A DNA stretch of 64,000 nt from Bacilli bacterium (GTDB taxonomy: Bacteria > Bacillota_I > Bacilli_A > RF39 > UBA660). Below the pieces are notes generated by a model. That model did not search any database. It was not told the origin of the DNA and was given only the letters and a program-made list of their open reading frames with translations. Location: assembly GCA_017428495.1 (NCBI GenBank), contig JAFRQS010000026.1, positions 8,372 through 72,371 on the forward strand, written 5' to 3'. Shown here one piece after another: positions 1 through 15,596 of the stretch (position 1 is the first letter of the stretch; each line of letters opens with the position of its first letter). Both the position numbers and the translations under genes were made by a program.

Positions 1-987
1 CATGATTTGCAAGTTCTGATATCATATTGATTCTTAGTGGTCCAACTTCAGTTGCAACTAATGGATTTACATATCTTGTTTTTGCATTAATATTTACACA
101 ATATCTGCCATCAACATATTCATTGCTGTGATAAACTGTATTAGCATTTTGAAATCTTCTAAAACTATCAGATAGATAAGTATCATTACAATTTAAAAAT
201 TTATTAATTATTTCTTCTTCTGATAATGTATATAAATCATCTATTGTTAAATACCCAGCATTACTCATAGATTTACACATATCCGCTAAGAATTGCATAA
301 CAGTCCTATCTTTATCACTTACCCATTCGGGCCAAAGTCTTGATATAGTATGAATATATTCTTCACACACTTCTTTATCCTTAAATGCCAGTTCATCTAT
401 ACCATCTTCATTTTTTACAATTGTTATATTATTGTACATCTTTTTTATTTGTTCTAATTCCCATACTCTAAAAAATGTTAGTCCACTAGCAAAAGTATAT
501 TCAAATCTATCGGCTGATAATCTTGGAGTATCATTATCAGCAATTGGATATATATGATAGTCATCTACTTCTTCTAATTTTATTCCATCTCTATTTAATA
601 AAGCCATTATTTCTTTTGAATTTTTAATAATATCAGTTGTTCTTTCTTCAGTAGATTCTTGTGTTTCTGAATCGCCATTCATAAAATCTATACAATGTTT
701 AAATACTGGAGTTGCTATATCATGAAATAGTCCAGCAATAGTTTGCTTCTTATCATGAGTAAAATTCCATATTATTAATGCTACTCCAACACTATGATCT
801 AAATTAGAATACCAATATCTTAGATTAAAGCATTTAGAGTAATCTGTTCCACAACTCATACTTATTTTTCCAATTCTTTCCATTTCTGGAGTATCTATAT
901 ATTCTAATAACCATTCTGGAAATGTTGGCGATAAGATACTAAAATAATCTCTTACTTCATCATTTAAATTATCTATGTACTTTTCCA
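1..987 (-). CDS. HD-domain phosphohydrolase (5' part; continues beyond window start)
   Basis: Reverse translation from ATG at 987 (MEKYIDNLNDEVRDYF...). Contains H..G.....H.........AGLFHDIATP, the HD metal-binding motif. No stop before position 1. Confidence 0.6.
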
Positions 988-1014
988 TATAACCACCTGT
1001 TTAATTATTATATC

Positions 1015-1116
1015 AAAAAAGACTAGTTTTACCTAGTCTTTTTACTACTTATTGTTGATTGCAGCTTGTGCAGCAGTTTACACCAGCAGTCAATTATTAT
1101 TTTAACTAAAATGACT
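1015..1116. repeat. att-like unit A: conserved-stem hairpin (1015-1043) + ppdK 3'-end mimic ttgattgcagcttgtgcagcag (1055-1076) + ACTAAAATGACT (1105-1116)
   Basis: 19-nt identity to ppdK 3' end at 12985-13003. Hairpin stem aaaagactag/ctagtcttt is shared with the units at 1880, 2754, 3388 and 12910. Confidence 0.8.
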
Positions 1117-1118
1117 CT

Positions 1119-1850
1119 TTAATCGAATTCTAATCTCCCTTTTCCTTTATAAAGATATTGTGGAATATTTAGTTTTAATTTTAATTCTTTAACATATCGT
1201 GGTTTAATATTTTCCTCTAATATTCTGCTAATAGCATCTGTTTGATGTTCTGGAACAGGTTCATCTAATGGCATTCCTAATACACACTTATCTTCACTTG
1301 CAGATGGAATAATGCCATGTGCTAACAATTCATTTTCTTTTGTCCAATCATCTTCCAAATCATAAACAGGTAATAATAGTTCTATGCCAAATTCATTTAG
1401 TAATTGCCTATATCCTTCAATAACTTTTGGCTGCTCAATAGAAAATAATTGACTTTTTCTTGCACCTTCGGCAATAAAATGAACATCATTTAATAAACAA
1501 TATCTTATTGCTTCATGATACATAGCACTTCTGCAATTTAGGCATCTGACTTGCGAAATAGTAGTATCACCATATCTACTGCAAAGCTCACTAAATGACA
1601 TATTTGCTATTACTCTTTCATTGTCTCTAAATAGAGGAACCGTTGTAAGTTTTCCTACATATTCAACTATATCTTTACCATATCCATTTTCAAATTTTAT
1701 TGCTCTTTCAACTTCTAAACCAGTTGATATAGAGCAGCCATTATCAAAATGAACTAATAAAACTTTATAACCTTGTGATACCAATCTTGCCATAGATAAT
1801 ATTGAATCTAATCCGCCAGAATACATTAGAAGAACTTTTTTCCTTTCCAT
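1119..1850 (-). CDS. PP-loop ATPase, QueC-like (7-cyano-7-deazaguanine synthase family); cassette cargo
   Basis: N-terminal LLMYSGGLDS PP-loop motif. About 240 aa with a C-terminal Cys pair (CLNCRS). Stop is 2 bp from ACTAAAATGACT. Confidence 0.6.
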   Translation of the reverse strand: MERKKVLLMYSGGLDSILSMARLVSQGYKVLLVHFDNGCSISTGLEVERAIKFENGYGKDIVEYVGKLTTVPLFRDNERVIANMSFSELCSRYGDTTISQVRCLNCRSAMYHEAIRYCLLNDVHFIAEGARKSQLFSIEQPKVIEGYRQLLNEFGIELLLPVYDLEDDWTKENELLAHGIIPSASEDKCVLGMPLDEPVPEHQTDAISRILEENIKPRYVKELKLKLNIPQYLYKGKGRLEFD

Positions 1851-1879
1851 AACCCCACTCCTTGAATAGATTATAACAT

Positions 1880-2116
1880 AAAAAAAGACTAAAATATAAT
1901 AATTCTAGTCTTTCTAAATATAAATATCCATAAATATAGGTTCATTTAATCTATATTTTACATTATTACCACATATTCTTTTAACATCATCAATTGTAAT
2001 AATTATTCTCACTAAGAATATGCTTTCATACTGTTTCATTTTCCTGATTTTTCGTGAAGATGAGCTTGTGCAATTTCCTACTTTGGCAGTCAATTTATAA
2101 ACTCACTAAAATGACT
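1880..2116. repeat. att-like unit B (degenerate): hairpin 1880-1914, core gatgagcttgtgcaatttcc 2058-2077, ACTAAAATGACT 2105-2116
   Basis: Same stem (aaaagacta...ctagtcttt) and agcttgtgca core as the ppdK end. The right-end ACTAAAATGACT is 9 bp from the stop of the next gene. Confidence 0.65.
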
Positions 2117-2126
2117 TATATTTTTA

Positions 2127-2468
2127 TTATTTCTTATTTTTGGGCTTTAATATTTTAGAAAATGCATTTGAACATTTTTCTTTTATTCTAGCTGTTTTTG
2201 GACCAAATCTTTTAGATACGATTGCAACTGACATTACAAATCTAGTATATATTTCTTCAATTTGTTTACATTTGTCCATATAATATTGTTCTGTATCTAT
2301 ATTATTGGCAATTGATTCTTTAACTTCTTGTTCCATTAAAGATAATGGATATTCAAAATATTGAACAATTGTAGAATATAAATGATCAGCTTTACATTTT
2401 TCTATATCTTCTTTTAACAAATTTAATCCTATATAGTATTGTTCTTTAAAAGTTATTTTCTTTTCCAT
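2127..2468 (-). CDS. hypothetical protein (cassette cargo)
   Basis: 113-aa ORF with no recognisable motif. Bracketed by att-like units B and C. Confidence 0.45.
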   Translation of the reverse strand: MEKKITFKEQYYIGLNLLKEDIEKCKADHLYSTIVQYFEYPLSLMEQEVKESIANNIDTEQYYMDKCKQIEEIYTRFVMSVAIVSKRFGPKTARIKEKCSNAFSKILKPKNKK

Positions 2469-2753
2469 ATTTCCTCCTTTTTTATTAATTTCATAGTTTT
2501 AACGCTCTGGAATTATTTGGTTATTTATCGAGCTAACCAATATCACCAAATTGCATTCATAATTTGCTATATATTTCTCATCTGATGACATGACAAAAAC
2601 CTCTATTGCAGTCACATATTATACATCAACTTTTGAAATATATCAAATACTAAATAGAACAACTCTAAATAAGCCAATTATAATCTAATTCCTGTTGGTT
2701 TTCTAAAATACATATATTATCATCCTTTCTTTTTTATATATTTTTTTCCAACA

Positions 2754-2877
2754 AAAAAAGACTATTTCTAGCCTTTCTTGTATTTTATATTTTCATGCTT
2801 TTGCGTTCTAATTATTTCTCGCTTTAATTGCAGCTTGTCACCATGTGAGGTTCGGGCCGATTTAGACTAAAATAACT
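2754..2877. repeat. att-like unit C: hairpin 2754-2778 + ttaattgcagcttgt 2824-2838 + ACTAAAATaACT 2866-2877
   Basis: About 85 bp collinear with 12910-12996 (ccaacaaaaaaagactatttctag...ttaattgcagcttgt), then diverges after cttgt. Confidence 0.8.
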
Positions 2878-2902
2878 TTTTGTCATATGTACAACAATTA
2901 AT

Positions 2903-3361
2903 TTAAATCTTTTTTCTCGCATTATCAATTTGTAATCTGCATTCATTTTCTAATATTCCAATTTCAATATTTAGTTCTGTTTTTGATTTATCTTTAATAT
3001 CAAATATAGTCACATTAGGGTTCATAGTTTCTTCACTTGGAGCACCATATATATAATTTTGTATTTTTGCTTTGATGCATGCAGACATACACATACTACA
3101 ACTCCATGCATTTGACATTATACAATAATCAGATAAATCCATTGTATGAAGTTTCTTGCATGCTTTTGAGATTAAATTAATTTCTGCATGTAAAATAGGA
3201 TTCATCATTGATTTAACAGTATTGTGTGCCTTTTCTATTATATTTCCATTTTTATCAATTAGTATTGCACCAAATGGTGAATTTCCTTCTTTGATTGCTT
3301 CATCTACTTCTTGCATCACTAATCTCATTAATTCTTCTTTTTTCTCTATAGTTAGATTCAT
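2903..3361 (-). CDS. CDA-fold (cytidine/guanine deaminase-like) zinc deaminase; cassette cargo
   Basis: HAEINLI ... CSMCMSAC zinc-binding signature of the cytidine/dCMP deaminase superfamily. About 150 aa, comparable to Bacillus GuaD. Confidence 0.65.
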   Translation of the reverse strand: MNLTIEKKEELMRLVMQEVDEAIKEGNSPFGAILIDKNGNIIEKAHNTVKSMMNPILHAEINLISKACKKLHTMDLSDYCIMSNAWSCSMCMSACIKAKIQNYIYGAPSEETMNPNVTIFDIKDKSKTELNIEIGILENECRLQIDNARKKI

Positions 3362-3387
3362 TCTATCACCTATATAAATTATACCAT

Positions 3388-3527
3388 AAAAAAGACTAGA
3401 TTAGTCATCTAGTCTTAATTACACTTTTTACTTATTTGCCCCAGACTTGATTGCAGCTTGTCAAACCAGATAATTAACTTATCCAATATGGACGCTTAAA
3501 TGTATGATTTTTAAGACTAAAATGACT
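3388..3527. repeat. att-like unit D: hairpin 3388-3416 + ttgattgcagcttgt 3447-3461 + ACTAAAATGACT 3516-3527
   Basis: Same three-part architecture as units A and C. ACTAAAATGACT is 13 bp from the stop of the downstream gene. Confidence 0.8.
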
Positions 3528-3540
3528 TAATTTAATTTTT

Positions 3541-4221
3541 CTATTTAATATTTATTAGATTTTTTACTATTTCTATAAATTGATTCCATCCTATTACTAT
3601 TGTTATAATCACTGAAAGAAAAGTTAAAATACTGATAATACCACTACATAATTTGAATAATACACTATCTTTTACTTTAGATAAACTTTTAGAAGATATT
3701 AATCCCACACTAAATAATATATCAAGAGGGCTTCCTAATATTGCTTTAATACCGCTTGTTAAGTCATATATAGGATTAAATAATCTTCTTATTTCATTTT
3801 TTCTATACTCATCTATTATTCCCATCTTTCTTAAAAAACAATTATGACACCATGTTATTTGATCTCCTTCATATTCAATCAACCCTTTTGCTTTTAAAGA
3901 TAAGACTTCGTTCATGAAATTAATTACTACTTCATAATTTGGATAATGACCTCTACTATCTCTGTAAAGCATTATTCCCGAATCACCTAATATTATTTGT
4001 ATTTTATCACTATTTGACATAAGCCATTCATATTCTTTTGCATTATATTTATCTTTATTCATCAAATCTGAAATAAATTTGCTAAACTTTTCTCTATACT
4101 CATAGATAAAGTTATAATTATCAGACCACTTTCTTATATTTAAAACATTAGTAATAATACCAATTATAATTAGAAAAATTACTGTTAGAATAAAATATAT
4201 CATGGTATGCCTCCTTAACAA
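3541..4221 (-). CDS. membrane protein (N- and C-terminal TM helices), unknown function
   Basis: Hydrophobic segments at residues about 7-28 and about 195-220. Lies immediately downstream of the serine recombinase, co-directional. Confidence 0.45.
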   Translation of the reverse strand: MLRRHTMIYFILTVIFLIIIGIITNVLNIRKWSDNYNFIYEYREKFSKFISDLMNKDKYNAKEYEWLMSNSDKIQIILGDSGIMLYRDSRGHYPNYEVVINFMNEVLSLKAKGLIEYEGDQITWCHNCFLRKMGIIDEYRKNEIRRLFNPIYDLTSGIKAILGSPLDILFSVGLISSKSLSKVKDSVLFKLCSGIISILTFLSVIITIVIGWNQFIEIVKNLINIK

Positions 4222-4250
4222 TATATTATACCATTTTATTCTAAAATAGC

Positions 4251-5876
4251 TTAATCTAATTTGTGTTCTACGATAAAATAATCTTGTTTTTTTCCTTTCA
4301 CTTCTAAATTAATTGGTTCCTTTAAAAATACTAATTTCCATTCGAACCAATCTTTATGTACTGTTATTTTTTCTACTACCTCCTCTATTAATAAATCATT
4401 AATTCCATTGTAATTAAAATCTAATAATCTTCTAACACTTTGTTTAGCTTTTTCAATTTTAACTTCAGGTGGATCTAATCTTTTTAATTCTTTTTCTAAA
4501 TCTTCTATTTCTAATTTATATAATTCTATTTTATCAGATAGTTTCTTTTGAAAAGATTCATAATCATTTGAATTAACTTTCTTATCTAAATATAAATTCA
4601 ATAATCTATCTAATTTAGTAGATTCTTCTTTTATTAATTTATTATATCTTTTTATTTCACTATTTAATTCATCAGCTTCATGTGTATCTATTTTTATACC
4701 ATTAAGTAGTATTAGTTCTAATTCTATTCTGTTGTGATCATCTTCAACAAGATTTCTAAATATAAACTCAGCCATTTTTTCAAGTTTCCATTCCTGTACT
4801 TCTTTAACTTCACAATATTTATAACCATATTCATACTTCCCACCCTTGGGATGAGTTTTTCTATTATAGCATGCATAGGCATATGTTTTACCTTTGTTAG
4901 TTGTGTGATCTTTTCTTCTATTAAATGTTGAACCACATTCACAAATCATTTTCTTGCTCCAAACATATTTAGGTACTCCAATTGCTGTCCTATCACCTGA
5001 TGGTGATGGTTTAGAGTGTCTATCTAATATAGCTTGTACTTTATCAAAATCTTCTTTTGAAATAATAGGTTCATGTGTACCTTCAACAACTATTTGTTCT
5101 ATCTCTCCTCTATTCTTTTTAGCTTTTTGCTCAAGATAATCTGGAATATATTGTTTGTTATAAACTATTGTTCCAGCATAGAATTGATTTCTTAATACAC
5201 GAGTTATATAAGCCGCATTCCATCTATTTAGTCCAGTTGATGTCTTATAACCCTTCCTTTCTAAGTCTTTTGCTATAGTAGTAGTTCCTACACCATTTAG
5301 ATATTTTTTAAATATATATCGAACTATATCTGCTTGGTCTTGATTAACTATCATAGTATTCTTATTAATTTTGTCATATCCAAGAATATTTCCTGAACCC
5401 ATGAAAATTCCATTCATGAATGCTATTCTTAAACCTGCTTTTACTCTTTGAGAAGTTTTCTTACTCTCATTTTGAGCTAGTGTTGCCATTATAGTGAGCT
5501 TTAATTCTCCATCATCATCCTTAAATGTCCATATATTATCTTCAGTAAAATATACTTCAACACCAATCTTTTTTAGTTTTCTTGTTTCTTGTAATGTATC
5601 AACTGTATTTCTAGCAAATCTTGATACTTCACGAGTAATAATTAAATCAAATTTACCTTCATGGGCATCTTTCATCATTCTTATAAAATTCTTTCTTTTC
5701 TTAATAGAAGTTCCTGTAATACCTTCATCTATATATCTATCATATAGAATCCAATTAGGATGTTTATCTAAAATATCATCATAGTACTGAACTTGATTAT
5801 CTAATGCTGACAATTGAGCTTCATGTTCAGTAGATACACGAGCATATATAGCAACCTTCCTATTCATTTTCATCAC
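4251..5876 (-). CDS. large serine recombinase (resolvase/invertase N-domain + recombinase domain + zinc ribbon + coiled coil)
   Basis: VAIYARVSTEHEAQLSALDNQ with the catalytic Ser region, RFARN and a Cys cluster (CECGS...CYNRK...YCE). 541 aa, typical of phage/ICE-type serine integrases. Confidence 0.85.
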   Translation of the reverse strand: MMKMNRKVAIYARVSTEHEAQLSALDNQVQYYDDILDKHPNWILYDRYIDEGITGTSIKKRKNFIRMMKDAHEGKFDLIITREVSRFARNTVDTLQETRKLKKIGVEVYFTEDNIWTFKDDDGELKLTIMATLAQNESKKTSQRVKAGLRIAFMNGIFMGSGNILGYDKINKNTMIVNQDQADIVRYIFKKYLNGVGTTTIAKDLERKGYKTSTGLNRWNAAYITRVLRNQFYAGTIVYNKQYIPDYLEQKAKKNRGEIEQIVVEGTHEPIISKEDFDKVQAILDRHSKPSPSGDRTAIGVPKYVWSKKMICECGSTFNRRKDHTTNKGKTYAYACYNRKTHPKGGKYEYGYKYCEVKEVQEWKLEKMAEFIFRNLVEDDHNRIELELILLNGIKIDTHEADELNSEIKRYNKLIKEESTKLDRLLNLYLDKKVNSNDYESFQKKLSDKIELYKLEIEDLEKELKRLDPPEVKIEKAKQSVRRLLDFNYNGINDLLIEEVVEKITVHKDWFEWKLVFLKEPINLEVKGKKQDYFIVEHKLD

Positions 5877-5980
5877 CTCTACTAAAAATTAACATTTTTA
5901 TAAGAATTTGTTTACTGTGCGATTTTTACATAAGAAAAAGAAGTATTTCTACTTCTTTCATCACACATTTGACAATTATT

Positions 5981-6292
5981 CTATTCTTCAGCAGCTATAT
6001 CCTTATACTTATCGATTACCTCTTGCATCTCACTGTTGATTTCTTGCACCAATACAGGCTTATTTTGAACAAACGTTTTTAATTGCCCATATATATTACT
6101 ATAAATAAGTTTTTCAACGTCACTTGCAATTTCAACGCCTTCAATATATTCATCTAATACTATCTCTTCCTCATCATATATTTTTTGTAAAATTTCATAT
6201 ATATCTTCTTTAGCAATATCAGATATAGGTTTAAAATCCACTCCATCTTTGCTAAAATAGCACTTTTTATTTTCAATTTTTAAAAGTTTCAT
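5981..6292 (-). CDS. small acidic protein, partner of the PHP-ATPase (translationally coupled)
   Basis: Start MKLLKIEN at 6292 with RBS AAAGGAGAAATATAT upstream. Overlaps the upstream gene's stop (6273) by 20 bp. Confidence 0.5.
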   Translation of the reverse strand: MKLLKIENKKCYFSKDGVDFKPISDIAKEDIYEILQKIYDEEEIVLDEYIEGVEIASDVEKLIYSNIYGQLKTFVQNKPVLVQEINSEMQEVIDKYKDIAAEE

Positions 6293-8306
6293 ATATATTT
6301 CTCCTTTCATCATATGCTTCACTACCTGCTTCCATAACTTCCATTATAGTGTCATAACTCATTATTGAATCATTATTAACTGTTGATAATGTTTTACTAC
6401 CAAATTCTCCAGTATAAACCTTAAACACATTATCTTCGTTAGCTGTATAAATCAATTTATTAGGTTTCATTAACATTCCCAATGAATTATTATGTGTAGA
6501 TATAAATACAGTAGTTTTATTAGATAATTCTTTTATTATCTCTATTATATAATCCTTTATAAATGGATTATCAAATGATGCTTCTGGTTCATCTAATAAT
6601 AATATATCATAACTTTCAGAGCCTTTAATCTCCCGTAACAAATTGTATTCAGCTCTTTCTCCTCCAGATAATTCATTACCATTCTCATTTATTACCTTAA
6701 CTTTAAATGATAATATTGCTTTGTAAACCGTGCTTCTGTCGATTCCAGCATTTACTAATTCTTTAATAAATTTAAATGGATTGGTATTATAGTTAGAATT
6801 AAAATATGAACTAATTCCTGTTCTTGTCGAAAGTTCGTGTTTTACTTCATCTGCATTATTAAATTTATCTTTCTCAACAATAAGTTTAAAACGATACACA
6901 TCTAATTCACAAATATTTTTCTTTGTTTTTAGTCTTGATACCAATTCATTATATTTATTAACTAAAATTAATTCTTTACTAGCTTTGTAAAGATTAACCT
7001 CACTTATATTTATCATTGAGGATTTTGTTGTTAATTTATCCTTAATTATAGTTACTATATTATCAGTGCTTTGCTTTAACTTATATTCTAAATACTCTTT
7101 TCTTCTCCTAGCAATTAAATCATTTATTAAACTTACAATTTGCTTTTTATCTAAATATTTTTCAATCAAATCTTTGTTATGATCACTATCAAGAATTACA
7201 GTTAACGCATTTACTATTTTTTTAGTATCATAATTATCTAAAAAATCAAACTTAATTTCATTGAATAGTTTAGTTTTTGAATATGAATCTTGTAAAGATT
7301 GATTTGTAGCAAACTCTTTTAGACTTGATAAATAATTATCTATTTTATTTAATTCTTCATTATTAATATCTAAAATTGTATCAGTTAGTTTTCTAAGTGG
7401 TTCTAAATAATTAGAAATGATTCTTTGTTGTTCATCTTTAACAAGTTCCTTAAACTTGCTTTCTTCACTTTTACCAGTCAAAGAGAATTGAGGAATATAT
7501 TTGATATTCTCACTTTTATTATCCTTTGAACTATAAATGTGTTCCAAATTATAAGTTTTTCCAGATGATCTCTTTCCTATAATTACATTTAATTTTGTTG
7601 AAGCAGTTGTACCATCTGGTAAATATGAAAATTCATCTGCTTTTTTATTTTCAGAGATAAAAACCTTATTTTTATCTGATAAAGCTTGTTTTAATACGCC
7701 AAACTCTGTTGAATTTATGTCTACGAAAGTGCTTTTTGATGGAAAGCTATATATTCCTTCTTCATTTTTATATGAATCCTCCATTCGAATATCGCTAAAG
7801 AAAACAGGTGAATAAAAAGTATCCTCTTTTTTTGTACTTTCAAATTTTTTTGCACTTTTTACTTCACCAACATTTATAATATTACCAAATTTTTCAATTG
7901 TGGTACTTTTCATTGATGGCTCTTTCTTTATGTGGGGGATTAAAATATAATCTCTGTAGTTTGGAAATATTCTAATAAATTCTTCATAACTAATTGAATC
8001 ATTAGCATTGTGTATGGAATTATTTAATAAAACGCATGAATTATTCAATTCTTCAACTCTATCTATTGAGGCAATAGCTAACATATGAGATGATTCAATA
8101 TCAATTTCTACCCCTGGTAATACAACACAGTTTAATTTGTTAACGATTGTTTCAAATTGATCTTTATCAAAATGATTATGATTAGTTATTGATATTATAT
8201 CTAATTTATTGATGTCAACATACTTTTCTAATGCATCGATTGAAAAATCAAATGATCTTTCAAAATTACTTGGTGATGTGTGTATATGTAAATCTATTTT
8301 TTTCAA
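6273..8306 (-). CDS. PHP-domain phosphoesterase fused to SMC/ABC-type ATPase (Walker A, coiled coil, LSGG signature, Walker B, H-loop)
   Basis: N-terminal IDLHIHTSPS...ITNHNHFD (PHP). GKRSSGKT (Walker A). About 300 aa helical region. LSGGERAEYNLL signature. ILLLDEPEASFD (Walker B). ISTHN (H-loop). Likely TTG start at 8306 preceded by an in-frame stop and a GGAG RBS. Confidence 0.7.
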   Translation of the reverse strand: MKKIDLHIHTSPSNFERSFDFSIDALEKYVDINKLDIISITNHNHFDKDQFETIVNKLNCVVLPGVEIDIESSHMLAIASIDRVEELNNSCVLLNNSIHNANDSISYEEFIRIFPNYRDYILIPHIKKEPSMKSTTIEKFGNIINVGEVKSAKKFESTKKEDTFYSPVFFSDIRMEDSYKNEEGIYSFPSKSTFVDINSTEFGVLKQALSDKNKVFISENKKADEFSYLPDGTTASTKLNVIIGKRSSGKTYNLEHIYSSKDNKSENIKYIPQFSLTGKSEESKFKELVKDEQQRIISNYLEPLRKLTDTILDINNEELNKIDNYLSSLKEFATNQSLQDSYSKTKLFNEIKFDFLDNYDTKKIVNALTVILDSDHNKDLIEKYLDKKQIVSLINDLIARRRKEYLEYKLKQSTDNIVTIIKDKLTTKSSMINISEVNLYKASKELILVNKYNELVSRLKTKKNICELDVYRFKLIVEKDKFNNADEVKHELSTRTGISSYFNSNYNTNPFKFIKELVNAGIDRSTVYKAILSFKVKVINENGNELSGGERAEYNLLREIKGSESYDILLLDEPEASFDNPFIKDYIIEIIKELSNKTTVFISTHNNSLGMLMKPNKLIYTANEDNVFKVYTGEFGSKTLSTVNNDSIMSYDTIMEVMEAGSEAYDERRNIYETFKN

Positions 8307-8361
8307 CTATCTCATCTCCACTTCAACAATTATTATAACATAAAACAGGAAGCTTAACTTC

Positions 8362-8565
8362 CTATTTTATTCCCCTTGGATTCCAATCCATACCTATATT
8401 TTCAAGTAATTCTATTTTTTCTTTTGATAATTTATTCTTTTTATAAGTACCTCTTTGAGTTCCTATCCATCTACCTAATTGTATTTTATCTATAGTTGTA
8501 TATCGAAACGGAATTAATAAATTTCCTTTTTCTTTATAATATTGTTCAGCAAGTTTATAAATATA
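8362..8565 (-). pseudogene. remnant of a helicase-associated (HA) domain gene
   Basis: 57-codon frame with no start: ...KLAEQYYKEKGNLLIPFRYTTIDKIQLGRWIGTQRGTYKKNKLSKEKIELLENIGMDWNPRGIK*. Matches the G.W...QR..YK.GKLS.E....L...G..W HA-domain pattern. Stop codon lies just upstream in frame. Confidence 0.5.
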
Positions 8566-8625
8566 TTATTTCAATGGTTACTCTCCATAAAATTTCTTCT
8601 CACTTGTTGTTATTATATCATGAAA

Positions 8626-8652
8626 AAAGCAGATTTTTTCATCTGCTTTAGA
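8626..8652. terminator. hairpin aaaaaagcagattttttcatctgcttt (second copy at 10562-10589)
   Basis: Perfect inverted repeat (gcagat/atctgc) flanked by A/T runs. A near-identical copy lies 1.9 kb away. Confidence 0.55.
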
Positions 8653-8677
8653 ATGCACAATATCTTAATCTTCCGAT

Positions 8678-9607
8678 CTAATCTATTTTTAATTTAAATG
8701 AATACCAAGCAGTTCCACGATCACATATTGTATCAATTAACACTACATATTCCCCTTTTAAATTAGGAACTGTAAAATTATTTTTTTCATAAGTAATAGG
8801 AATATCTACTTTTTCATATTTTGAATCATAAAAGGTAATTCTAGTTATAGTTAAATCACTAGAGGAATCTAGAGCAATAATATCCTCTTTATTACTTGGC
8901 AAATATTCATCATAATTAATATCTTCTAAAGGAATTGACAAGCCACATGAACTTGCTTTATCTTCTCCTTTAGTATCAGTAATACAATATGAGCCAATTT
9001 GTGTAAGATTTCTATCTTTACCATTAATTACCCACAAATTTCTTGGTGTTGGATTAAATACTTCAACATCCCAAGTAAATAGCCAAAAGCCAAATTTAAT
9101 ATTAATACTATTACTTAATGGCTCATTAGGTGAAATACTTACTTCTTTTTTCATTTTATAACCAAATCCCAAATAAGTATAATTATTTCCATTTTCACGA
9201 ATTGGTATCATAAACAATGGATTTTCATTATGCCTTACACGATTATAATCAGTCCAAAATGTATAAATAAAGAACAATAGCAGGAAAGCAACTACAGATA
9301 TAATTATAATTCTTTTAATTTTTTTAATCCTATTTGTTGAATATTTTATTGTATTATTTAATACTTCATCAGTTTTTTCTTTTAATTCACTTTCTTTTAT
9401 TCTTTCACCACTCAATAATTCATTTAAAGATATATCAAGTATTTCACATAGCGGTTTATAAAAAACTATATCTGGCATTCTTCTACCATTTTCCCAGTTA
9501 CCAATAGCTCGATCTGTTACATTTAATTTATCTGCAAGTTCTTGTTGTGTCATCTTTTTTTCTTTACGAATTTTAGCAATAAATTTTCCAATTTTTTCTT
9601 GATTCAT
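8678..9607 (-). CDS. membrane-tethered XRE-family HTH regulator (HTH - TM - extracytoplasmic domain)
   Basis: N-terminal MTQQELADKLNVTDRAIGNWENGRRMPD (Cro/C1 HTH). TM at about 100-120. Confidence 0.7.
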   Translation of the reverse strand: MNQEKIGKFIAKIRKEKKMTQQELADKLNVTDRAIGNWENGRRMPDIVFYKPLCEILDISLNELLSGERIKESELKEKTDEVLNNTIKYSTNRIKKIKRIIIISVVAFLLLFFIYTFWTDYNRVRHNENPLFMIPIRENGNNYTYLGFGYKMKKEVSISPNEPLSNSINIKFGFWLFTWDVEVFNPTPRNLWVINGKDRNLTQIGSYCITDTKGEDKASSCGLSIPLEDINYDEYLPSNKEDIIALDSSSDLTITRITFYDSKYEKVDIPITYEKNNFTVPNLKGEYVVLIDTICDRGTAWYSFKLKID

Positions 9608-9746
9608 AGTTTTTGCTCCTTTCGTATTTAATTATAGATTGCATTTCTAAAAAAGTATCCAAACAATCCGTAGGGTTTCATATATCTATATTTTATCACA
9701 AAAAAAGAGAATTCTTTAATTCTCCTAATAACCATTATTTGAATAG

Positions 9747-10469
9747 TTATTTTTCATATAACAATACTGATTTATTTATATATTCATCTAGTTGCTTTTT
9801 TGATATGTTTTTAATATTATTTATATTTGAATCAATATAATATATTTTTATTTTCTTAGTCTCTTTGTCGTTGATAGTTATGGGATAGTATCTATAACTA
9901 TTTCCGTTATAAATAGATTTCTTAACTATTTCATTATAAGAACATTTAGAATTCAAAAATATAATCTCATAATCATTATCATCCATTATAGAGTATTGAT
10001 TAATGTTGCCACTATAGACGGTACATAAATCTTTTGTGGTAAAAAATAATTGATTATCTCTTTCTTCAACATACATCCTATTTTCATCATAGTTTAAAAT
10101 TACTTTATGATTTCCAACAAGTATTAATGTTAAAACAACAATAACTATTATTGATACTAAAACAATAATTGTTCTTCTTATTCGTGTAATTTTAGTATTT
10201 ACATTTGATATAACGGAAAAAACATTTTCTTCTAACTTTTCTTGGTATGAATTTTTTTCTACCTTTTCACCACTTAACAAATCATTTATTGTAATATTTA
10301 ATTCATTACACAACGGTTTAAAAAAAGATACATCAGGAAAATTCTTACCATTTTCCCAATTTGATATAGCTCTATCTGTTACACCTAATTTTTCAGCTAA
10401 TTCACTTTGAGTAATTTTATTATCTTTACGACATTTAGCTATAAACTTTCCTATTTTAATTTGATCCAT
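9747..10469 (-). CDS. membrane-tethered XRE-family HTH regulator, paralog of 8678..9607
   Basis: ITQSELAEKLGVTDRAISNWENGKNFPD HTH followed by a TM segment. N-terminal region nearly identical to its neighbour. Confidence 0.7.
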   Translation of the reverse strand: MDQIKIGKFIAKCRKDNKITQSELAEKLGVTDRAISNWENGKNFPDVSFFKPLCNELNITINDLLSGEKVEKNSYQEKLEENVFSVISNVNTKITRIRRTIIVLVSIIVIVVLTLILVGNHKVILNYDENRMYVEERDNQLFFTTKDLCTVYSGNINQYSIMDDNDYEIIFLNSKCSYNEIVKKSIYNGNSYRYYPITINDKETKKIKIYYIDSNINNIKNISKKQLDEYINKSVLLYEK

Positions 10470-10613
10470 TTTATTTCTCCTTTCTAGATTTAGAATACTA
10501 TGGCTTATAAAAAAATAACACGAAGTGTTGCTTGAGTTTTTAATATTATTATTTTATCACAAAAAAAGCAGATTTTTTTCATCTGCTTGATTATTAATTT
10601 TATAAGAATTCTA

Positions 10614-10934
10614 CTATGAAACCCATGACCACAGTCTTATTCCATAGAATAAATAAAATTCTTTCCCCATAACCTTAACCATTTTATTATCGTCTGAAGA
10701 ATCTTCTGACATATAATACTTTACTTTTATTTTATAGCCAAGGCTAAAATATTCAAAATCTATTTCTTCACCAGGTTCTAAACATGATATACAATATTTT
10801 GTCCTATCCAAAACTATTAATGGTTTACTACTATCATTAATTTTTAATCTTATACTTTCTTCTGTAATAAATAAAGCAAATATTCCTATAATTACTATTA
10901 ATATTATTCTTATTATTTTAAATACTTTCTTCAT
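10614..10934 (-). CDS. small membrane-anchored protein
   Basis: N-terminal hydrophobic anchor, 106 aa. Confidence 0.35.
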   Translation of the reverse strand: MKKVFKIIRIILIVIIGIFALFITEESIRLKINDSSKPLIVLDRTKYCISCLEPGEEIDFEYFSLGYKIKVKYYMSEDSSDDNKMVKVMGKEFYLFYGIRLWSWVS

Positions 10935-10945
10935 CTAAACACCTT

Positions 10946-12121
10946 TTATTTCTTTATTAATACATCAGGATAGTCATCAGCAATTTTATCAGCTGATATT
11001 AAGTTGGTTTCTAATGCAGACTTAAGAGTCATAACCTTATTATCAATCATAAACTTAATCATTACTTTATCACTCTTAATGCAACTTAAATAGTATTTAT
11101 GTCCATTATTTTCATAGATTTGTTCTAATGCTGTAGCACAAGTTTCGTCTGGATCAGAATAGTCTAAAATGCTATAGAAAATATAATCTGTTTCATTCTC
11201 AATTATTTTTCTCAAATCTGTTCCATTTGATATTGAATAATAACAACTATTTATACTTTCTGGTAGAATTCTCTTTCCATCACCCCATACTTGTATCGTT
11301 TCAATTAGTTTTTTATCATCATACATTTTAAACTCAAATCCATGTCCATCACTTAAACAATATTCACCATATCTGTTTGCACTTGATATTGCATTTAATA
11401 TTTCCTTTATTTTATTCGAATCTTTTATTACACCTAATTCTTTATCACCAGCATTAATTATTATTTTATTAGTTTTATCTATTTTTTTAATAATATTGGA
11501 TGGTATAGATTTACTTTGTTTTTCACTATTATTAGTTACACATTTATTAGTTAAGTCTTCCATATCAATATCGTTATTTTCAGTATGAACATAAATAATA
11601 GGAATTACTGGGCTTGAGAATGTTTGGTATGTAGTAAACCTTTTACTAAAGTATTCATCAAAAACATTCATTACTTCTGATTCATAAGTTCCATTTTTAG
11701 GGAAAATAATAAAATACATATTGTCTTTATGTTTACTAGCATATTTACCTTTAAATATATCAATTTTATCTTTATTAACATTTTTTATTTCAGATAATTG
11801 TATTTCAATTAAATCATCTTGTTCTGTTACTAAATATCCACCTAATTCATTTTCTAAACAAGATACAAGTTTATTCATGTCTTGTTCTGCTTCAACATAG
11901 GTATTTATTTCTCCGGCAACATGAAATCCTAGTATTTTAAGTTCCCATCCGTCTTCATATCCAGTTGATGAGGTCTGACTTATTCTGTGTATTTTAGTAT
12001 ATTTATATAAAACAGCTTTATATTCTGTAGATCCTCCATCCCATAATCTGTCTTTAATTGGAATAAGCATTAAGATAAAAATTGCAATTATAACAATAAT
12101 AATTATTTTTTTCTTTTTCAT
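10946..12121 (-). CDS. membrane-anchored extracytoplasmic protein, unknown function
   Basis: N-terminal KKKK plus hydrophobic anchor. 391 aa. Confidence 0.4.
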   Translation of the reverse strand: MKKKKIIIIVIIAIFILMLIPIKDRLWDGGSTEYKAVLYKYTKIHRISQTSSTGYEDGWELKILGFHVAGEINTYVEAEQDMNKLVSCLENELGGYLVTEQDDLIEIQLSEIKNVNKDKIDIFKGKYASKHKDNMYFIIFPKNGTYESEVMNVFDEYFSKRFTTYQTFSSPVIPIIYVHTENNDIDMEDLTNKCVTNNSEKQSKSIPSNIIKKIDKTNKIIINAGDKELGVIKDSNKIKEILNAISSANRYGEYCLSDGHGFEFKMYDDKKLIETIQVWGDGKRILPESINSCYYSISNGTDLRKIIENETDYIFYSILDYSDPDETCATALEQIYENNGHKYYLSCIKSDKVMIKFMIDNKVMTLKSALETNLISADKIADDYPDVLIKK

Positions 12122-12213
12122 AGTTCCTCCTATATCTTTATTATACTACATAATTATTAAATATTATCATCAACTTAAATCATCGTAATATTACTATTTT
12201 TCGAACAAAGGAA

Positions 12214-12681
12214 TTAGCTATATAAATTATAGTTTAATTTCCATTCAATATATTCTTGATCTGATATTTCACCTTTCATTCTTCTTTCTCTCATTTCTCC
12301 CCATTCTTCTAATCCTCTTATAATATCTTCATTGTAATATGTCTTTTTCATTGCATCTTTGTCGAAAATATATTCACTATAAGGGCTTAGTTCTTCTTCC
12401 CACATATGATAATAAATAACTTCATTAGGGTCTACAAAATTATATCTTCTTATTGCATAGTTACTTACATCAAATAATTCTGCTAAATCTTCTAATCTTT
12501 CTGGTTGTGGTTCTCTAGCATTTCTTTCATATTTATCTATGCTATCTGTTGGTTTTTCACCTCCTAACTCTAAAAACTCTGCTACATTTGGCTTAGACAT
12601 ATATCTTAGCTCCCTTACAAATTTTAGTCTTGCGCCTTGACTAAGATTCTCCAATTCAGGTTTAAAAAAATAATTTTTCAT
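12214..12681 (-). CDS. XRE-like HTH domain protein
   Basis: ARLKFVRELRYMSKPNVAEFLELGG ... LEDLAELFDVSNYAI resembles an HTH_3 domain. Located at the ppdK-proximal end of the island. Confidence 0.4.
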   Translation of the reverse strand: MKNYFFKPELENLSQGARLKFVRELRYMSKPNVAEFLELGGEKPTDSIDKYERNAREPQPERLEDLAELFDVSNYAIRRYNFVDPNEVIYYHMWEEELSPYSEYIFDKDAMKKTYYNEDIIRGLEEWGEMRERRMKGEISDQEYIEWKLNYNLYS

Positions 12682-12721
12682 AAATATACCTCCTATCTTA
12701 TTTTTTTATTCCATTAAAAAA

Positions 12722-12760
12722 GCTAGTACTTAATACTAGCCAACTCCTTTTTTATTCTTT
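12722..12760. terminator. bidirectional terminator hairpin gctagtacttaatactagc
   Basis: Perfect 7-bp stem flanked by A-run and T-run. Confidence 0.5.
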
Positions 12761-12909
12761 TTAACTTTTGCTCTCCATATTTGGACTACAAGAAATGCAA
12801 CCCGAGTTTTATTGTCACTATACTATGCCATTTAGAACCACCTCTTTTCCAATTTTTAATAATTTTCACTTAAATATTTATGATTACCCCCAAACCCTTT
12901 TAATCCCAA

Positions 12910-12996
12910 CAAAAAAAGACTATTTCTAGTCTTTTCATTTTATTACTTTGGTACGTTTAAACGTCCTATTTTTGATTCGCCTTAATTGCAGCTTGT
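12910..12996. repeat. ppdK-proximal att-like unit: terminator hairpin 12910-12935 + ttaattgcagcttgt 12982-12996 (current ppdK 3' end)
   Basis: Template for units A-D. The core overlaps the last 9 codons of ppdK. Confidence 0.8.
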
Positions 12997-15596
12997 GCAG
13001 CAGCAAGTCTAGCAAGTGGTACTCTATATGGTGAACATGATACATAATCTAGTCCTACATTATGACAGAACTCTACTGATGATGGTTCTCCACCATGTTC
13101 TCCACATATACCTAAATGTAAATCTGGTCTTGTACTTCTTCCTAATTCAGCAGCCATTTTTACAAGTTTACCAACACCTATTTGATCTAATTTAGCAAAT
13201 GGATCTTGTTCATAAATATTATTCTTATAGTAATCACCTAAGAATTTAGATGCATCATCTCTTGAGAATCCAAATGTCATCTGTGTTAAATCATTTGTAC
13301 CAAATGAGAAGAATTCTGCTTCTTTTGCTATATCATCTGCTGTAAGTGCTGCTCTTGGTATTTCTATCATAGTACCAACTTTATATTTTAATTCTACTCC
13401 AGCATTTTTAATTATTTCATCTGCAGTTTTAACTACTATATCTTTAACAAATTTTAATTCCTTAACCTCTCCTACTAGCGGAATCATTATTTCAGGTTCT
13501 ACATTTAATCCTTCTTTATTAACATTAATTGCTGCTTCAATTACAGCTCTTGTTTGCATTTTTGCTATTTCTGGATATGTAACAGCAAGTCTACATCCTC
13601 TATGTCCCATCATTGGGTTAAATTCTTTTAATGATTCAACTCTTTTCTTCAATGATTCAAAACTCATACCTAAACTCTTTGCAAGTGGTTTAATTTCTTC
13701 ATCTGTATGTGGTAAGAATTCATGTAGAGGTGGATCTAAGTAACGAATAGTTACTGAATATGGAGCCATTGCTTTAAATAATCCTTCAAAGTCACTTCTT
13801 TGATATGGAAGAATCTTTTCAAGTGCTTCTTCCCTTTGTTCAATAGTTTCTGCTGCTATCATTCTTCTAAAATTAAATATTCTATCTTCTTCAAAGAACA
13901 TATGCTCTGTTCTACATAAACCAATACCTTCTGCGCCAAATTTTCTTGCTTGAATAGCATCTTTAGGCGTATCAGCATTTGTTCTTACTTTTAATCTTCT
14001 AACACTATCAGCCCAATTCATAAATGTTTCAAAGTCTCCACTTATTTCTGGTTCAACTGTTTTAATTTGTTCACCATAAACATTACCAGTTGATCCATCT
14101 AAACTCATGAAGTCTCCTTCATGGAATACTAATCCATCCTTTGTTGTAAGAGTTTTTTCTTCTTCACTAATTGTTAATTCACCACAACCAGATACACAGC
14201 AAGTTCCCATACCTCTTGCTACTACTGCAGCATGTGATGTCATACCACCTCTTATAGTAAGTACACCATTAGCATAGTTCATACCTTCTATATCTTCTGG
14301 ACTAGTTTCTAATCTTACTAATAATAAGTCTTTCTCACCAGATTCTTTAGCTTTAACTACATCTTCAGCTGTAAAGTAAATTTTACCAGTTGCTGCACCT
14401 GGAGATGCTGCTAAACCTTTAGCTATTACTTTACCATTCTTTAATGCTTCAGAATCAAACATTGGATGTAATAATTGATCTAATTGTTTTGGTTCAACTC
14501 TTAAAAGTGCTTCTTCTTTAGTAAGCATACCTTCAGATACAAGATCTACTGCCACTTTAAGTGCTGCTGCTGCAGTTCTTTTACCATTTCTAGTTTGTAG
14601 CATAAATAATTTGCCATTTTCTATAGTAAATTCCATATCTTGCATATCTTTATAATGATTTTCTAATAAATTAGCAATTCTTACAAATTCAGAATATACT
14701 TCTGGCATATCACTTTCTAGTTTACTTATTGGTTCTGGTGTTCTTATACCTGCAACAACATCTTCACCTTGTGCATTTATTAAATATTCACCATATAATT
14801 TCTTTTCACCAGTAGCAGGGTTTCTTGTAAATGCAACACCTGTTCCACAATCATTACCACGGTTTCCATATACCATTTCCTGAACATTAACAGCTGTTCC
14901 CCAATCACTTGGTATATCATTTAATCTTCTATATACTATAGCTCTTTCATTCATCCATGATCTAAATACTGCCTTAACTGCTTCTATTAATTGTACTTTT
15001 GGATCTTGTGGGAATTCTTCACCAGCAAGTTCTTTATAATTTTCTTTAAATCTTAGTGTAACCTCTTCCATATCATCTGCTGTAAGTTCAAGGTCACTCT
15101 TAACTCCTTTTTCTTCTTTTATTTTATCGAAATATCTTTCAAATGATGATTTTGGATATCCTTTAACTACATCTGCAAACATTTGAATAAATCTTCTATA
15201 AGAATCATATGCAAATCTTTTATTATTTGTAGCTTCTGCAAATCCTTTTGCAACTTCATCATTTAAACCTAGATTTAAAACTGTATCCATCATACCAGGC
15301 ATTGATGCTCTTGCACCACTTCTTACTGATACAAGTAATGGATTATTTAAATCTCCCATCTTCTTTCCTGTTTTAGCTTCTAATTCAGCAAGTTTAGTAA
15401 ATATTTCATCTTCTATATCTTTACCAATTTCCTTACCATTATCATAATATCTTGTACAAGCTTCTGTTGTAACTGTAAATCCTCTTGGTACAGGCATACC
15501 TATATTAGTCATTTCTGCTAAGTTAGCACCCTTACCACCAAGTAGATTTCTCATGTCTTTACTACCTTCTTCAAAGGCATAAACGTATTTTCCCAT
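12966..15596 (-). CDS. ppdK: pyruvate, phosphate dikinase
   Basis: 876 aa. N-terminal GKYVYAFEEG...LLGGKGANLAEM. Central phospho-His domain (GGMTSHAAVVARGMG). C-terminal PEP-utilising domain. Confidence 0.9.
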   Translation of the reverse strand: MGKYVYAFEEGSKDMRNLLGGKGANLAEMTNIGMPVPRGFTVTTEACTRYYDNGKEIGKDIEDEIFTKLAELEAKTGKKMGDLNNPLLVSVRSGARASMPGMMDTVLNLGLNDEVAKGFAEATNNKRFAYDSYRRFIQMFADVVKGYPKSSFERYFDKIKEEKGVKSDLELTADDMEEVTLRFKENYKELAGEEFPQDPKVQLIEAVKAVFRSWMNERAIVYRRLNDIPSDWGTAVNVQEMVYGNRGNDCGTGVAFTRNPATGEKKLYGEYLINAQGEDVVAGIRTPEPISKLESDMPEVYSEFVRIANLLENHYKDMQDMEFTIENGKLFMLQTRNGKRTAAAALKVAVDLVSEGMLTKEEALLRVEPKQLDQLLHPMFDSEALKNGKVIAKGLAASPGAATGKIYFTAEDVVKAKESGEKDLLLVRLETSPEDIEGMNYANGVLTIRGGMTSHAAVVARGMGTCCVSGCGELTISEEEKTLTTKDGLVFHEGDFMSLDGSTGNVYGEQIKTVEPEISGDFETFMNWADSVRRLKVRTNADTPKDAIQARKFGAEGIGLCRTEHMFFEEDRIFNFRRMIAAETIEQREEALEKILPYQRSDFEGLFKAMAPYSVTIRYLDPPLHEFLPHTDEEIKPLAKSLGMSFESLKKRVESLKEFNPMMGHRGCRLAVTYPEIAKMQTRAVIEAAINVNKEGLNVEPEIMIPLVGEVKELKFVKDIVVKTADEIIKNAGVELKYKVGTMIEIPRAALTADDIAKEAEFFSFGTNDLTQMTFGFSRDDASKFLGDYYKNNIYEQDPFAKLDQIGVGKLVKMAAELGRSTRPDLHLGICGEHGGEPSSVEFCHNVGLDYVSCSPYRVPLARLAAAQAAIKANQK

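Follow-up and report, generated by a model that had tools for sequence, protein, structure and literature searches.

The stretch examined here, a 64-kb window (64,000 nt of contig JAFRQS010000026.1 of assembly GCA_017428495.1, a Bacilli bacterium), raises the question of how short, mostly single-gene units that encode no recombinase came to be stacked behind ppdK, the gene for pyruvate phosphate dikinase. All genes in the first 16 kb of the window were on the minus strand, and the same junction recurred five times downstream of ppdK on that strand, with plus-strand core ends at 12996, 3461, 2838, 2069 and 1069. One of the units between these junctions carried a gene for a large serine recombinase (LSR). 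The comparisons described below suggest that cassettes bearing copies of the ppdK end are probably stacked, shuffled and passed among genomes by this Ccr-related LSR, which is carried on a minority of the units.

The Cassette Array at the 3′ End of ppdK

The target gene ppdK (876 aa, 12966–15596, minus strand) encoded PPDK_N and PEP-utilizers domains. The core CAGCTTGT (plus strand) ended at 1069, 2838, 3461 and 12996, the last copy lying inside the 3′ end of ppdK, and a variant core, GAGCTTGT, ended at 2069. Three small units, E1 (1070–2069), E2 (2070–2838) and E3 (2839–3461), were found to be discrete, in agreement with the original prediction, an earlier reading of this DNA by eye. That reading was also right that attachment-site (att)-like arms bound the units, that an LSR element adjoins them (E4, 3462–12996, minus strand, the only recombinase-bearing unit in the window) and that the target is the 3′ end of a protein-coding gene. 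None of the three small units encoded a recombinase, as had been stated, and tblastn with the LSR as query found no LSR remnant in 1070–3461 even at E ≤ 10.

The gene to the left of 1069, previously taken for chromosomal flank, turned out to be the cargo of a further array unit. It encoded a 369-aa protein whose 3′ part lay at 2–991 (minus strand). The ppdK-side arm of this unit (1007–1069, minus strand) comprised the core CAAGC within 1062–1069, the ppdK-end copy QAAINNK* at 1045–1068, a hairpin at 1016–1043 and the element TGATATAAT at 1007–1015. In the source contig (L121; ENA scaffold ERZ28654133 scaffold_23, 328 kb), the 369-aa gene lay between cores at 8782 and 10106. The 369-aa protein matched no Pfam family, and the label 'HD' is a by-eye reading of its LFHD motif. 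Positions 8782–11932 of L121 held the 369-aa unit, a 0.58-kb unit with a gene for a 155-aa GNAT acetyltransferase and a 1.25-kb unit with helix-turn-helix (HTH) and KilA-N genes, all of them recombinase-less; TetR and MMPL genes came after the last array unit. The array therefore comprised at least seven units, one with a recombinase (E4), and ran past the left edge of the window. The window contained five repeats of this unit anatomy, and L121 contained eight.

In the direction of ppdK, each unit comprised, in order, the core CAAGC, a substitute ppdK C-terminus in frame, a terminator hairpin (AAGACTAG..CTAGTCTT), a promoter-like TGnTATAAT and a ribosome-binding site, ahead of what was usually a single gene; the motif AGTCATTTTAGT and a far arm completed the unit. 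The ppdK frame ran on past every core for 7–10 codons to a stop (minus strand). The copies of the ppdK end read QAAIKSGANK*, QAAIKARNN*, QAHLHEKSGK* and QAAINNK*, and the current end of ppdK, QAAIKANQK*, was itself supplied by E4 from the core at 12989–12996 on. A hairpin of the form AAGACTA..TAGTCTT (AAGACTAG-loop-CTAGTCTTTTT) followed each ppdK-end copy, so that the hairpin and ppdK-end mimic predicted on the other side of each unit were present at all five junctions. The possibility that this hairpin is the generic terminator of the genome was rejected because all five copies in the 64 kb were confined to the array junctions.

Extended −10 elements (TGGTATAAT, TGTTATAAT and TGATATAAT) followed the T-run of the hairpin and were themselves followed by a ribosome-binding site and a start codon. 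A consensus promoter scan did not exceed shuffled controls in this AT-rich DNA (25 found, 21 expected from shuffles); the promoter assignment is based instead on the enrichment of TGnTAnnnT after the hairpin, which was present in 50 of 91 cases when about 3% would be expected by base-composition arithmetic. A search of window positions 1–13200 against Rfam at E ≤ 1 gave no match.

The motif AGTCATTTTAGT (or AGTTATTTTAGT in E3) began 2–26 nt past each gene. It was found in exact form (ACTAAAATGACT) at 1105, 2105 and 3516, and as ACTAAAATAACT, with one mismatch, at 2866. Its predicted presence at the 3′ end of each gene was thus confirmed in exact form for E1, E2 and E4, and E3 carries the one-mismatch variant. 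The four copies with at most one mismatch all lay in the array, at distances of 27, 35, 35 and 54 nt from the core; in the three small units the far arm between motif and next core measured 27–35 nt. About 0.03 exact copies of the 12-mer were expected in 64 kb on both strands from base composition, compared with three present. When two mismatches were allowed, 25 copies were found in the window and 18.6 were expected, which is not significant.

Units with Different Neighbours in Other Genomes

Related loci from other assemblies, designated by L numbers, were compared with the window. The original prediction would have been undermined had the three small units been fixed neighbours of each other in all relatives; instead, each of them was found in other company. 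E1 was present in L258 with 96.3% identity over 1026 nt, between a different upstream unit and a different downstream junction. The homology extended from the first base of ACAAGC to 14 nt inside the next core, and tblastx showed E1 to be the sole segment common to the two regions of 12 and 17 kb. E3 was found in L174 (95% identity) with a Fic-domain unit on one side and the 369-aa unit on the other, E2 and E1 both being absent, and also in L154 behind another unit. E2 was the last unit in L165, where its end was joined not to E1 but to a junction type that borders the chromosome elsewhere. In L016, an LSR 97% identical to that of the window, with the same far arm, was core-joined straight to the 369-aa unit, which was followed by a different three-gene unit. 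In four more cluster pairs with distinct upstream flanks, homology began exactly at the core.

Survey of Related Loci

Metagenome assemblies from rumen and gut were scanned with the pattern AGTCATTTTAGT-N25-55-ACAAGCTGCWAT, which gave at least 120 loci. Most of the 120 matches to a looser pattern used for genome contigs, AGCTTGT N25-55 ACTAAAATRACT, were due to chance, and 11 real relatives were recognised among them by tblastn. These came from metagenome-assembled genomes (MAGs) labelled Bacilli, Erysipelotrichaceae, Bacillales and Bacillota, from sheep, goat, roe deer and human gut. No match to the tighter pattern was found in viral contigs. Pooling the metagenome loci with these 11 relatives and L121 gave a set of 132 loci.

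The pooled loci contained 75 complete core-to-core units of 364–7886 nt (median about 1.07 kb), 65 of them below 3.1 kb. In the 75 units, 128 of 133 open reading frames (ORFs) of at least 80 aa were co-oriented with ppdK. Fifty of the 65 small units had a single ORF with its own promoter-like element, and the median coding fraction of the small units was 76%. The 82 cargo proteins fell into 70 clusters. The search for motif-flanked single genes in other genomes that the original prediction had proposed, with a tabulation of their cargo, therefore bore out its comparison with the organisation of integron cassettes. An LSR homologue was present in 4 of the 75 units, and 71 were without one. No LSR was in view in L025 (ppdK, two small units, other genes) or in L150 (ppdK and one NUDIX unit).

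Cargo confirmed by Pfam included NUDIX, GNAT, UDG, dCMP deaminase, CYTH, histidine phosphatase, Ham1, metallophosphoesterase, Asp/Glu racemase, Fic, HAD and ABC-F ATPase proteins as well as class II aminoacyl-tRNA synthetases of the AsnRS and ThrRS types; MetRS-like and HtpG-like cargo was recognised by eye. Units with spare aminoacyl-tRNA synthetases or ABC-F ATPases lay at L174 1753–3774, L206 6125–8454, L245 10035–14566 and L225 1603–4639. Cargo of the synthetase and ABC-F types is often linked to antibiotic tolerance.

The Large Serine Recombinase and Its Relatives

The LSR of E4 (541 aa, 4251–5876, minus strand) started with AIYARVSTEHE at its N-terminus and matched the Pfam domains Resolvase (97.4 bits) and Recombinase (96.6 bits), with a weak zinc-ribbon match (Zn_ribbon_recom, 17.6 bits, below the cut-off of 25.3). 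The best NCBIfam matches were CcrB (154.7 bits, cut-off 900), CcrC (120.5 bits, cut-off 900) and CcrA (59.4 bits, cut-off 700), with XisF also among the best. By these scores, the LSR stands outside the CcrB and CcrC families and is distantly related to both. The nearest PDB chains were the N-domain of a conjugative-transposon recombinase, SPbeta YokA (9dxh) and the A118 integrase. Thousands of relatives were present in the protein database, labelled at most 'MAG: recombinase family protein [Bacilli bacterium]', some of them on contigs of 1.0–1.4 Mb. A phmmer search with the LSR against the 1824 ORFs of the 132 loci found only the LSR family; this search was LSR-seeded and no tyrosine-recombinase seed was run.

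A relative of the LSR with 74% identity (P0009) occurred as an identical protein at the 3′ end of ppdK in four contigs (L259–L262). The element carried the same cargo each time, an N6_N4 methyltransferase and an ASCH protein, and the flanking genes differed among the four contigs. LSR elements of this kind are therefore mobile and specific for ppdK. Relatives 97% identical to the LSR of the window were located at the same target in L016 and L007. Furthermore, L150 and L197 formed a before-and-after pair for the insertion of an LSR element, as both contained an identical NUDIX unit with its downstream DNA (100% over 1200 nt); ahead of this shared stretch stood ppdK in L150 and an LSR element in L197. 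E4 thus shows the features of an LSR integrative element: catalytic and recombinase domains and, in its relatives, recurrence of one element at ppdK across genomes, with the exchange confined to a few shared base pairs.

Crossover Site and Far Arms

In L259–L262, element-side and host-side sequence switched around CAAGC, and both the base before CAAGC and the third base of the following codon differed between the two ends within one genome. The arm of E1 diverged right after CAAGCT in its two contexts. A serine recombinase needs a dinucleotide shared by both sites. Since the flanks of CAAGC differ and E1 diverges after CAAGCT, the shared dinucleotide must lie within CAAGC, and on this comparison a crossover inside CAAGC fits better than one after CAGCTTGT, that is, after cagcttgt, where it had been put before.

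The far arms, about 40 nt long, were conserved across units with unrelated cargo and fell into classes of 27, 33–35, 40–42 and 47–54 nt. A class-42 far arm and the ppdK end together formed an 11-bp perfect inverted repeat (CTTGATTGCAG TACAAG CTGCAATCAAG) centred on the CA of the core, and class-27 arms showed an imperfect form of this mirror. The half-site of about 25 nt that follows the motif was likewise an imperfect mirror image of the ppdK end, and CC at −17/−16 was common to most arm classes. Such a layout would be expected of a core site that binds a recombinase dimer.

The arms adjoining LSR genes belonged to class 47–54 in 17 of 18 cases. The far arm of E4 was of class 54, and those of E1–E3 belonged to classes 27 and 35. 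Arms of class 27, 35 or 42 were found in 28 of the 34 small units with an assignable class; about 31 more had no exact motif. The motif was kept as AAGTCATTTTAGTC across LSR lineages of 59–97% identity, with the variant AAGTCACTTAGTCC in the 74% group. In class-35 arms, the AGTCA of the motif had an inverted partner, TGACT, about 15 nt downstream. The longer arm classes corresponded to a short arm with an inserted hairpin. Its 6-bp stem was paired in 93% of cells in 36 LSR-type arms, compared with 31–54% in slid controls; one pair alternated among CG, UA and UG in a compensatory manner, and there were many G·U pairs on the sense strand only. The stem-loops of LSR-adjacent arms had a 6-nt loop and stems such as GGAGCG..CGCTCC, GGAGTG..CATTCC and AGAACG..CGTTCT (for example, L096 4705–4777 and L213 134–206). 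Compact att sites are the rule for known LSRs, and the outer elements of the arms may therefore have other roles, such as binding an accessory factor, regulation or a function at the RNA level. Pairing of UAGUCUU in the motif with the 5′ arm of the terminator, as an anti-terminator, was considered and rejected, since the predicted minimum-energy fold kept the terminator in 58 of 60 junction modules and gave the alternative in two.

Proposed Mechanism

Each unit would bring its own functional copy of the ppdK end together with a terminator, so that the junction between ppdK and the first unit would still resemble the empty target. Internal junctions would resemble the attP site carried by an element, and an array would then offer a single attB-like site along with many attP-like ones, in direct orientation. 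The LSR, carried by a minority of units such as E4, could insert further circles at the ppdK-proximal junction; it could also cut out the proximal unit alone or several successive units together in circular form, and excised circles could re-insert through any internal attP-like junction. Repeated insertion, excision and re-insertion would permute and subdivide arrays, and recombinase-less cassettes would thereby travel between genomes. This mechanism would explain the stacking, the variable proximal units, the recurrence of distal units (L121, L016 and L174 share the 369-aa unit) and the carriage of units without a recombinase. For an array to be stable, the LSR would have to be tightly controlled, and the HTH genes of E4 may serve this purpose. 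We infer that the LSR is the enzyme that recombines the arms of the small units and that these are mobilised in trans through circular intermediates, be it singly or only as parts of composite circles.

Several observations weigh against this mechanism. The action of the LSR on the arms is deduced by comparing sequences. No LSR gene was directly followed by an arm of class 27, 35 or 42 among the 18 LSR-adjacent arms, so that recognition of the arms of E1–E3 by an LSR whose own arm is of another class has to be assumed. The spacing between motif and core varied from 27 to 54 nt, a poor fit to compact LSR att sites. No circular contigs were found among the loci by terminal overlap. Because the loci were selected by motif and core pattern, their frequencies are biased and the proportions given above are indicative. 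Finally, E1 contains a fragment of a foreign gene and the body of E2 stands behind a tRNA gene in L137, so other kinds of rearrangement also shape the units, and some recombinase-less units elsewhere are visibly decayed LSR elements.

Alternative Explanations

This last point leads to the explanation that competes best, namely that E1–E3 are dead remnants of LSR elements, of the type of cis-mobilizable elements (CIMEs), which lost the recombinase by deletion and are passive, moving at most in cis. LSR pseudogene fragments were present inside units in L254, L145/L206, L172, L179, L193 and L241, and in L179 (376–6330; also in L195) a live LSR element was joined at the core to a downstream E4-like element in which just a C-terminal LSR fragment was left. 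E1 holds a truncated foreign gene whose intact version was found in L127, and accretion after decay is the published model for such tandems (PMC5704250). Decay does not account for the absence of any LSR remnant from 1070–3461, nor for the fact that arms abutting LSR genes and the arms of E1–E3 and of most assignable small units belong to different classes. The small units are moreover compact and intact, with their high coding fraction and single ORFs, unlike the leftovers of random deletion, and E1 reached an unrelated region after its truncation. We therefore regard decay as an unlikely origin of E1–E3.

Alternatively, units could be shuffled by homologous recombination between the repeated arms (about 60–110 bp) after DNA uptake, with the LSR moving its own element only. 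Neighbouring arms were 75–95% identical over 60–110 nt, homology of shared units often extended about 80–100 nt into the arm of the next unit, and in L137 and L219 the breakpoints were at the hairpin and not at the core. However, the ppdK-end copy of E1 (CAAGCTCATCTTCAC...) had only 7 nt in common with other such arms, yet E1 was core-joined to two different upstream units, which makes homologous recombination an unlikely source of the upstream junction in the two contexts. Homologous recombination also gives no reason for the conservation and mirror symmetry of far arms across unrelated cargo. It may contribute to the shuffling of units, and as an explanation for the arrays as a whole we consider it quite improbable.

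That the array is an assembly artefact is highly improbable: the window does come from a metagenome scaffold, and junction repeats of 60–110 nt can be mis-joined by short-read assemblers, but about a dozen independently assembled contigs (other samples, two assemblers) had the same order of CDA-fold deaminase, 113-aa, PP-loop and 369-aa genes with 98–100% identity, which argues against mis-assembly, and comparable arrays occurred in many unrelated assemblies and MAGs.

Comparison with Known Systems

A search of a limited library of literature brought up no account of cassette arrays linked to an LSR and none of integration at ppdK. We infer that the array is an LSR-built tandem island miniaturised into an integron-like cassette array, with staphylococcal cassette chromosome (SCC) and ψSCC islands and CIME accretion as its closest analogues. 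In composite SCC islands, Ccr acts at the 3′ end of rlmH, and direct repeats of the target end, tandem stacking and recombinase-less ψSCC elements are found (PMC10581047; 10.1101/336396). The array shares with them an LSR whose best family match is to the Ccr lineage, an intact 3′ end of a housekeeping gene, direct repeats and recombinase-less units. Unlike SCC, its target is ppdK instead of rlmH (orfX), its LSR scores below the Ccr cut-offs, and a single recombinase gene takes the place of a ccrAB pair. The units of the array are also far smaller (0.4–3 kb, compared with 26.6 kb for an example ψSCC) and are mostly single genes with their own terminator and promoter, at least seven stand in one array, and recombinase-less units are the great majority (71/75).

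CIMEs of the ICESt1/ICESt3 type in streptococci are att-flanked, lack integration genes and stand next to an element that has an integrase, the two forming a tandem at a gene's 3′ end; during accretion, the incoming element integrates into the att site that holds the gene end (PMC5704250). E1–E3 are likewise att-flanked and without integration or transfer genes. Known CIMEs, however, are decayed integrative and conjugative or mobilizable elements with tyrosine integrases, whereas most small units here are free of traces of decay and have their own arm classes and a uniform, compact expression layout.

Integrons consist of co-oriented, mostly single-ORF cassettes with diverse cargo (GNAT, NUDIX, toxin-like proteins and proteins of no known function), and recombinase-less arrays are known as clusters of attC sites lacking integrases (CALINs) (PMC8618304). 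The ppdK arrays resemble them in their co-oriented single-ORF cassettes of about 0.5–1 kb, conserved arms and diverse cargo, and L025 and L150 provide LSR-less arrays. They differ in having a serine and not a tyrosine recombinase (IntI), in inserting inside the 3′ end of a housekeeping gene, in cassettes that each carry a terminator and a promoter-like element, and in a recombinase gene that rides in a mobile unit. Unit boundaries coincide with the midpoint of an inverted repeat in sites of duplex type, and not with the R box of a folded attC. Neither an attI/Pc platform nor attC-bounded cassettes were found, GTTRRRY boxes not having been specifically searched for.

In the tycheposons of Prochlorococcus, successive integrations at one site push older elements inward, leaving remnants and partial copies of the target, and the cargo is adaptive (10.1101/2020.12.28.424599). 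Tycheposons differ from the array in that most of them rely on tyrosine recombinases and target tRNA genes. They contain several genes, among them replication modules, and single-gene, self-expressing units are not typical of them.

The system can be put forward, tentatively and with less than even confidence, as a serine-recombinase counterpart of the integron. Self-expressing, mostly single-gene cassettes, with arms of about 40 nt in the role of attC and a self-regenerating target at the 3′ end of ppdK, would circulate among small-genome gut and rumen Bacilli without a recombinase of their own; mobile LSR elements would act as the shared supply of 'integrase', and the outer motif and co-varying hairpin would be a recombination or regulation signal new for LSRs.

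If the LSR does move the units, integron-like stockpiling and exchange of single genes arose with a different recombinase chemistry, in uncultured, small-genome Bacilli of gut and rumen. A target rebuilt after each insertion would permit unlimited stacking of cassettes that carry their own terminator and promoter. The cargo would constitute a pool of accessory genes otherwise annotated as ordinary chromosomal genes (nucleotide-pool enzymes, acetyltransferases, spare synthetases, ABC-F and toxin-like proteins). Genome engineers, too, would be interested in LSRs whose landing site renews itself and which naturally stack several cassettes.

Cargo of Units E1–E3

All three units lay on the minus strand. 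E1 had its far arm at 1070–1116, with the motif at 1105–1116, followed by the gene for a 243-aa PP-loop ATPase (1119–1850), TGTTATAAT (1870–1878), the hairpin (1885–1912), a 3′ fragment of a CBS-domain-like gene (about 1914–2000) and the atypical ppdK-end copy QAHLHEKSGK* (2036–2068). The 243-aa protein had N-terminal PP-loop matches (Pfam ThiI, 23.2 bits; QueC, 19.8 bits with a cut-off of 22). The original prediction had likened it to the QueC-like proteins of Qat/Dpd-type systems and considered the cargo typical of phage-defence or accessory functions. The protein reached 15 bits against NCBIfam QatC (cut-off 280) and had a marginal PADLOC QueC match (16 bits, E = 0.0025), the sole PADLOC match among the three cargo proteins; no Qat/Dpd partner genes were found in the unit. 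From these matches it can only be called a PP-loop ATPase.

The foreign fragment in E1 comprised the last 29 codons and the terminator of the CBS-domain-like gene (ORF 1914–2093, minus strand). In L127 (1–200), an intact CBS-domain-like gene stood ahead of the same PP-loop gene as in E1, and in L219 (633–824) the same fragment stood ahead of a different cargo gene. The fragment may be a hint to the origin of the cassette or to a second target.

In E2, the far arm (2070–2116) contained the motif at 2105–2116, and the 113-aa gene (2127–2468), a 280-nt leader (2469–2752), the hairpin (2758–2775) and QAAIKARNN* (2808–2837) followed. The 113-aa protein matched nothing in Pfam, NCBIfam, PADLOC or PHROGs, in keeping with its earlier description as hypothetical. 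The leader, described at the same time as gene-free DNA, held a near-consensus promoter-like element, TTGATA-17-TATAAT (2646..2618), and a 30-codon ORF upstream of the 113-aa gene; it gave no Rfam match, and no pseudogene remnant was found in it. In L137 (1–400), a tRNA-Met gene whose hairpin resembled that of E2 was immediately followed by the body of E2, from the T-run of the hairpin onward. This tRNA gene was preceded by repeated tRNA-like 5′ halves, and no core was present there.

E3 consisted of the far arm (2839–2877, with the motif variant ACTAAAATAACT at 2866–2877), the gene for a 152-aa deaminase with the cytidine deaminase (CDA) fold (2903–3361), TGGTATAAT (3377–3385), the hairpin (3392–3416) and QAAIKSGANK* (3428–3460). 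The 152-aa protein matched dCMP_cyt_deam_1 with 70.6 bits and TadA with 55 bits, the latter under the cut-off of that model. It is, on these profile matches, a generic CDA/TadA-like deaminase, so that the fold had been assigned correctly and the defence role attached to it found no support. Across the three units, PADLOC and PHROGs gave nothing useful beyond the PP-loop N-terminus of the E1 protein. A role in defence is not supported for any of the three cargo genes, because none of the proteins had a convincing PADLOC match.

Other Genes of E4 and a Distant Relative

In E4, the far arm (3462–3527, motif at 3516–3527) was followed by the gene for a 226-aa membrane protein (3541–4221), the LSR gene, the PDC-M49 B and A genes (5981–8306), two XRE-HTH genes (8678–10469), genes for proteins of 106 and 391 aa, a 155-aa HTH gene (12214–12681), the hairpin (12916–12933) and the ppdK end supplied by E4 (12966–12996), all on the minus strand. 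The PDC-M49 genes form a candidate defence pair: the 677-aa protein was a full-length match to PADLOC PDC-M49A (625 bits), and a 113-aa protein whose gene overlaps the 677-aa gene matched PDC-M49B (63 bits). The two XRE-type HTH genes, encoding 309 and 240 aa, were paralogues, their 5′ ends (9375–9614 and 10237–10476) being 71% identical over 240 nt.

L263 (JGI 3300021326 Ga0214518_100002) contained an LSR with 54% identity to that of the window, in a larger element of more than 13 kb with DnaB, SSB, small resolvase, type I restriction and GmrSD genes. A QAAIKANK* core with a hairpin, followed by GNAT and hydrolase genes, lay about 2 kb further downstream.

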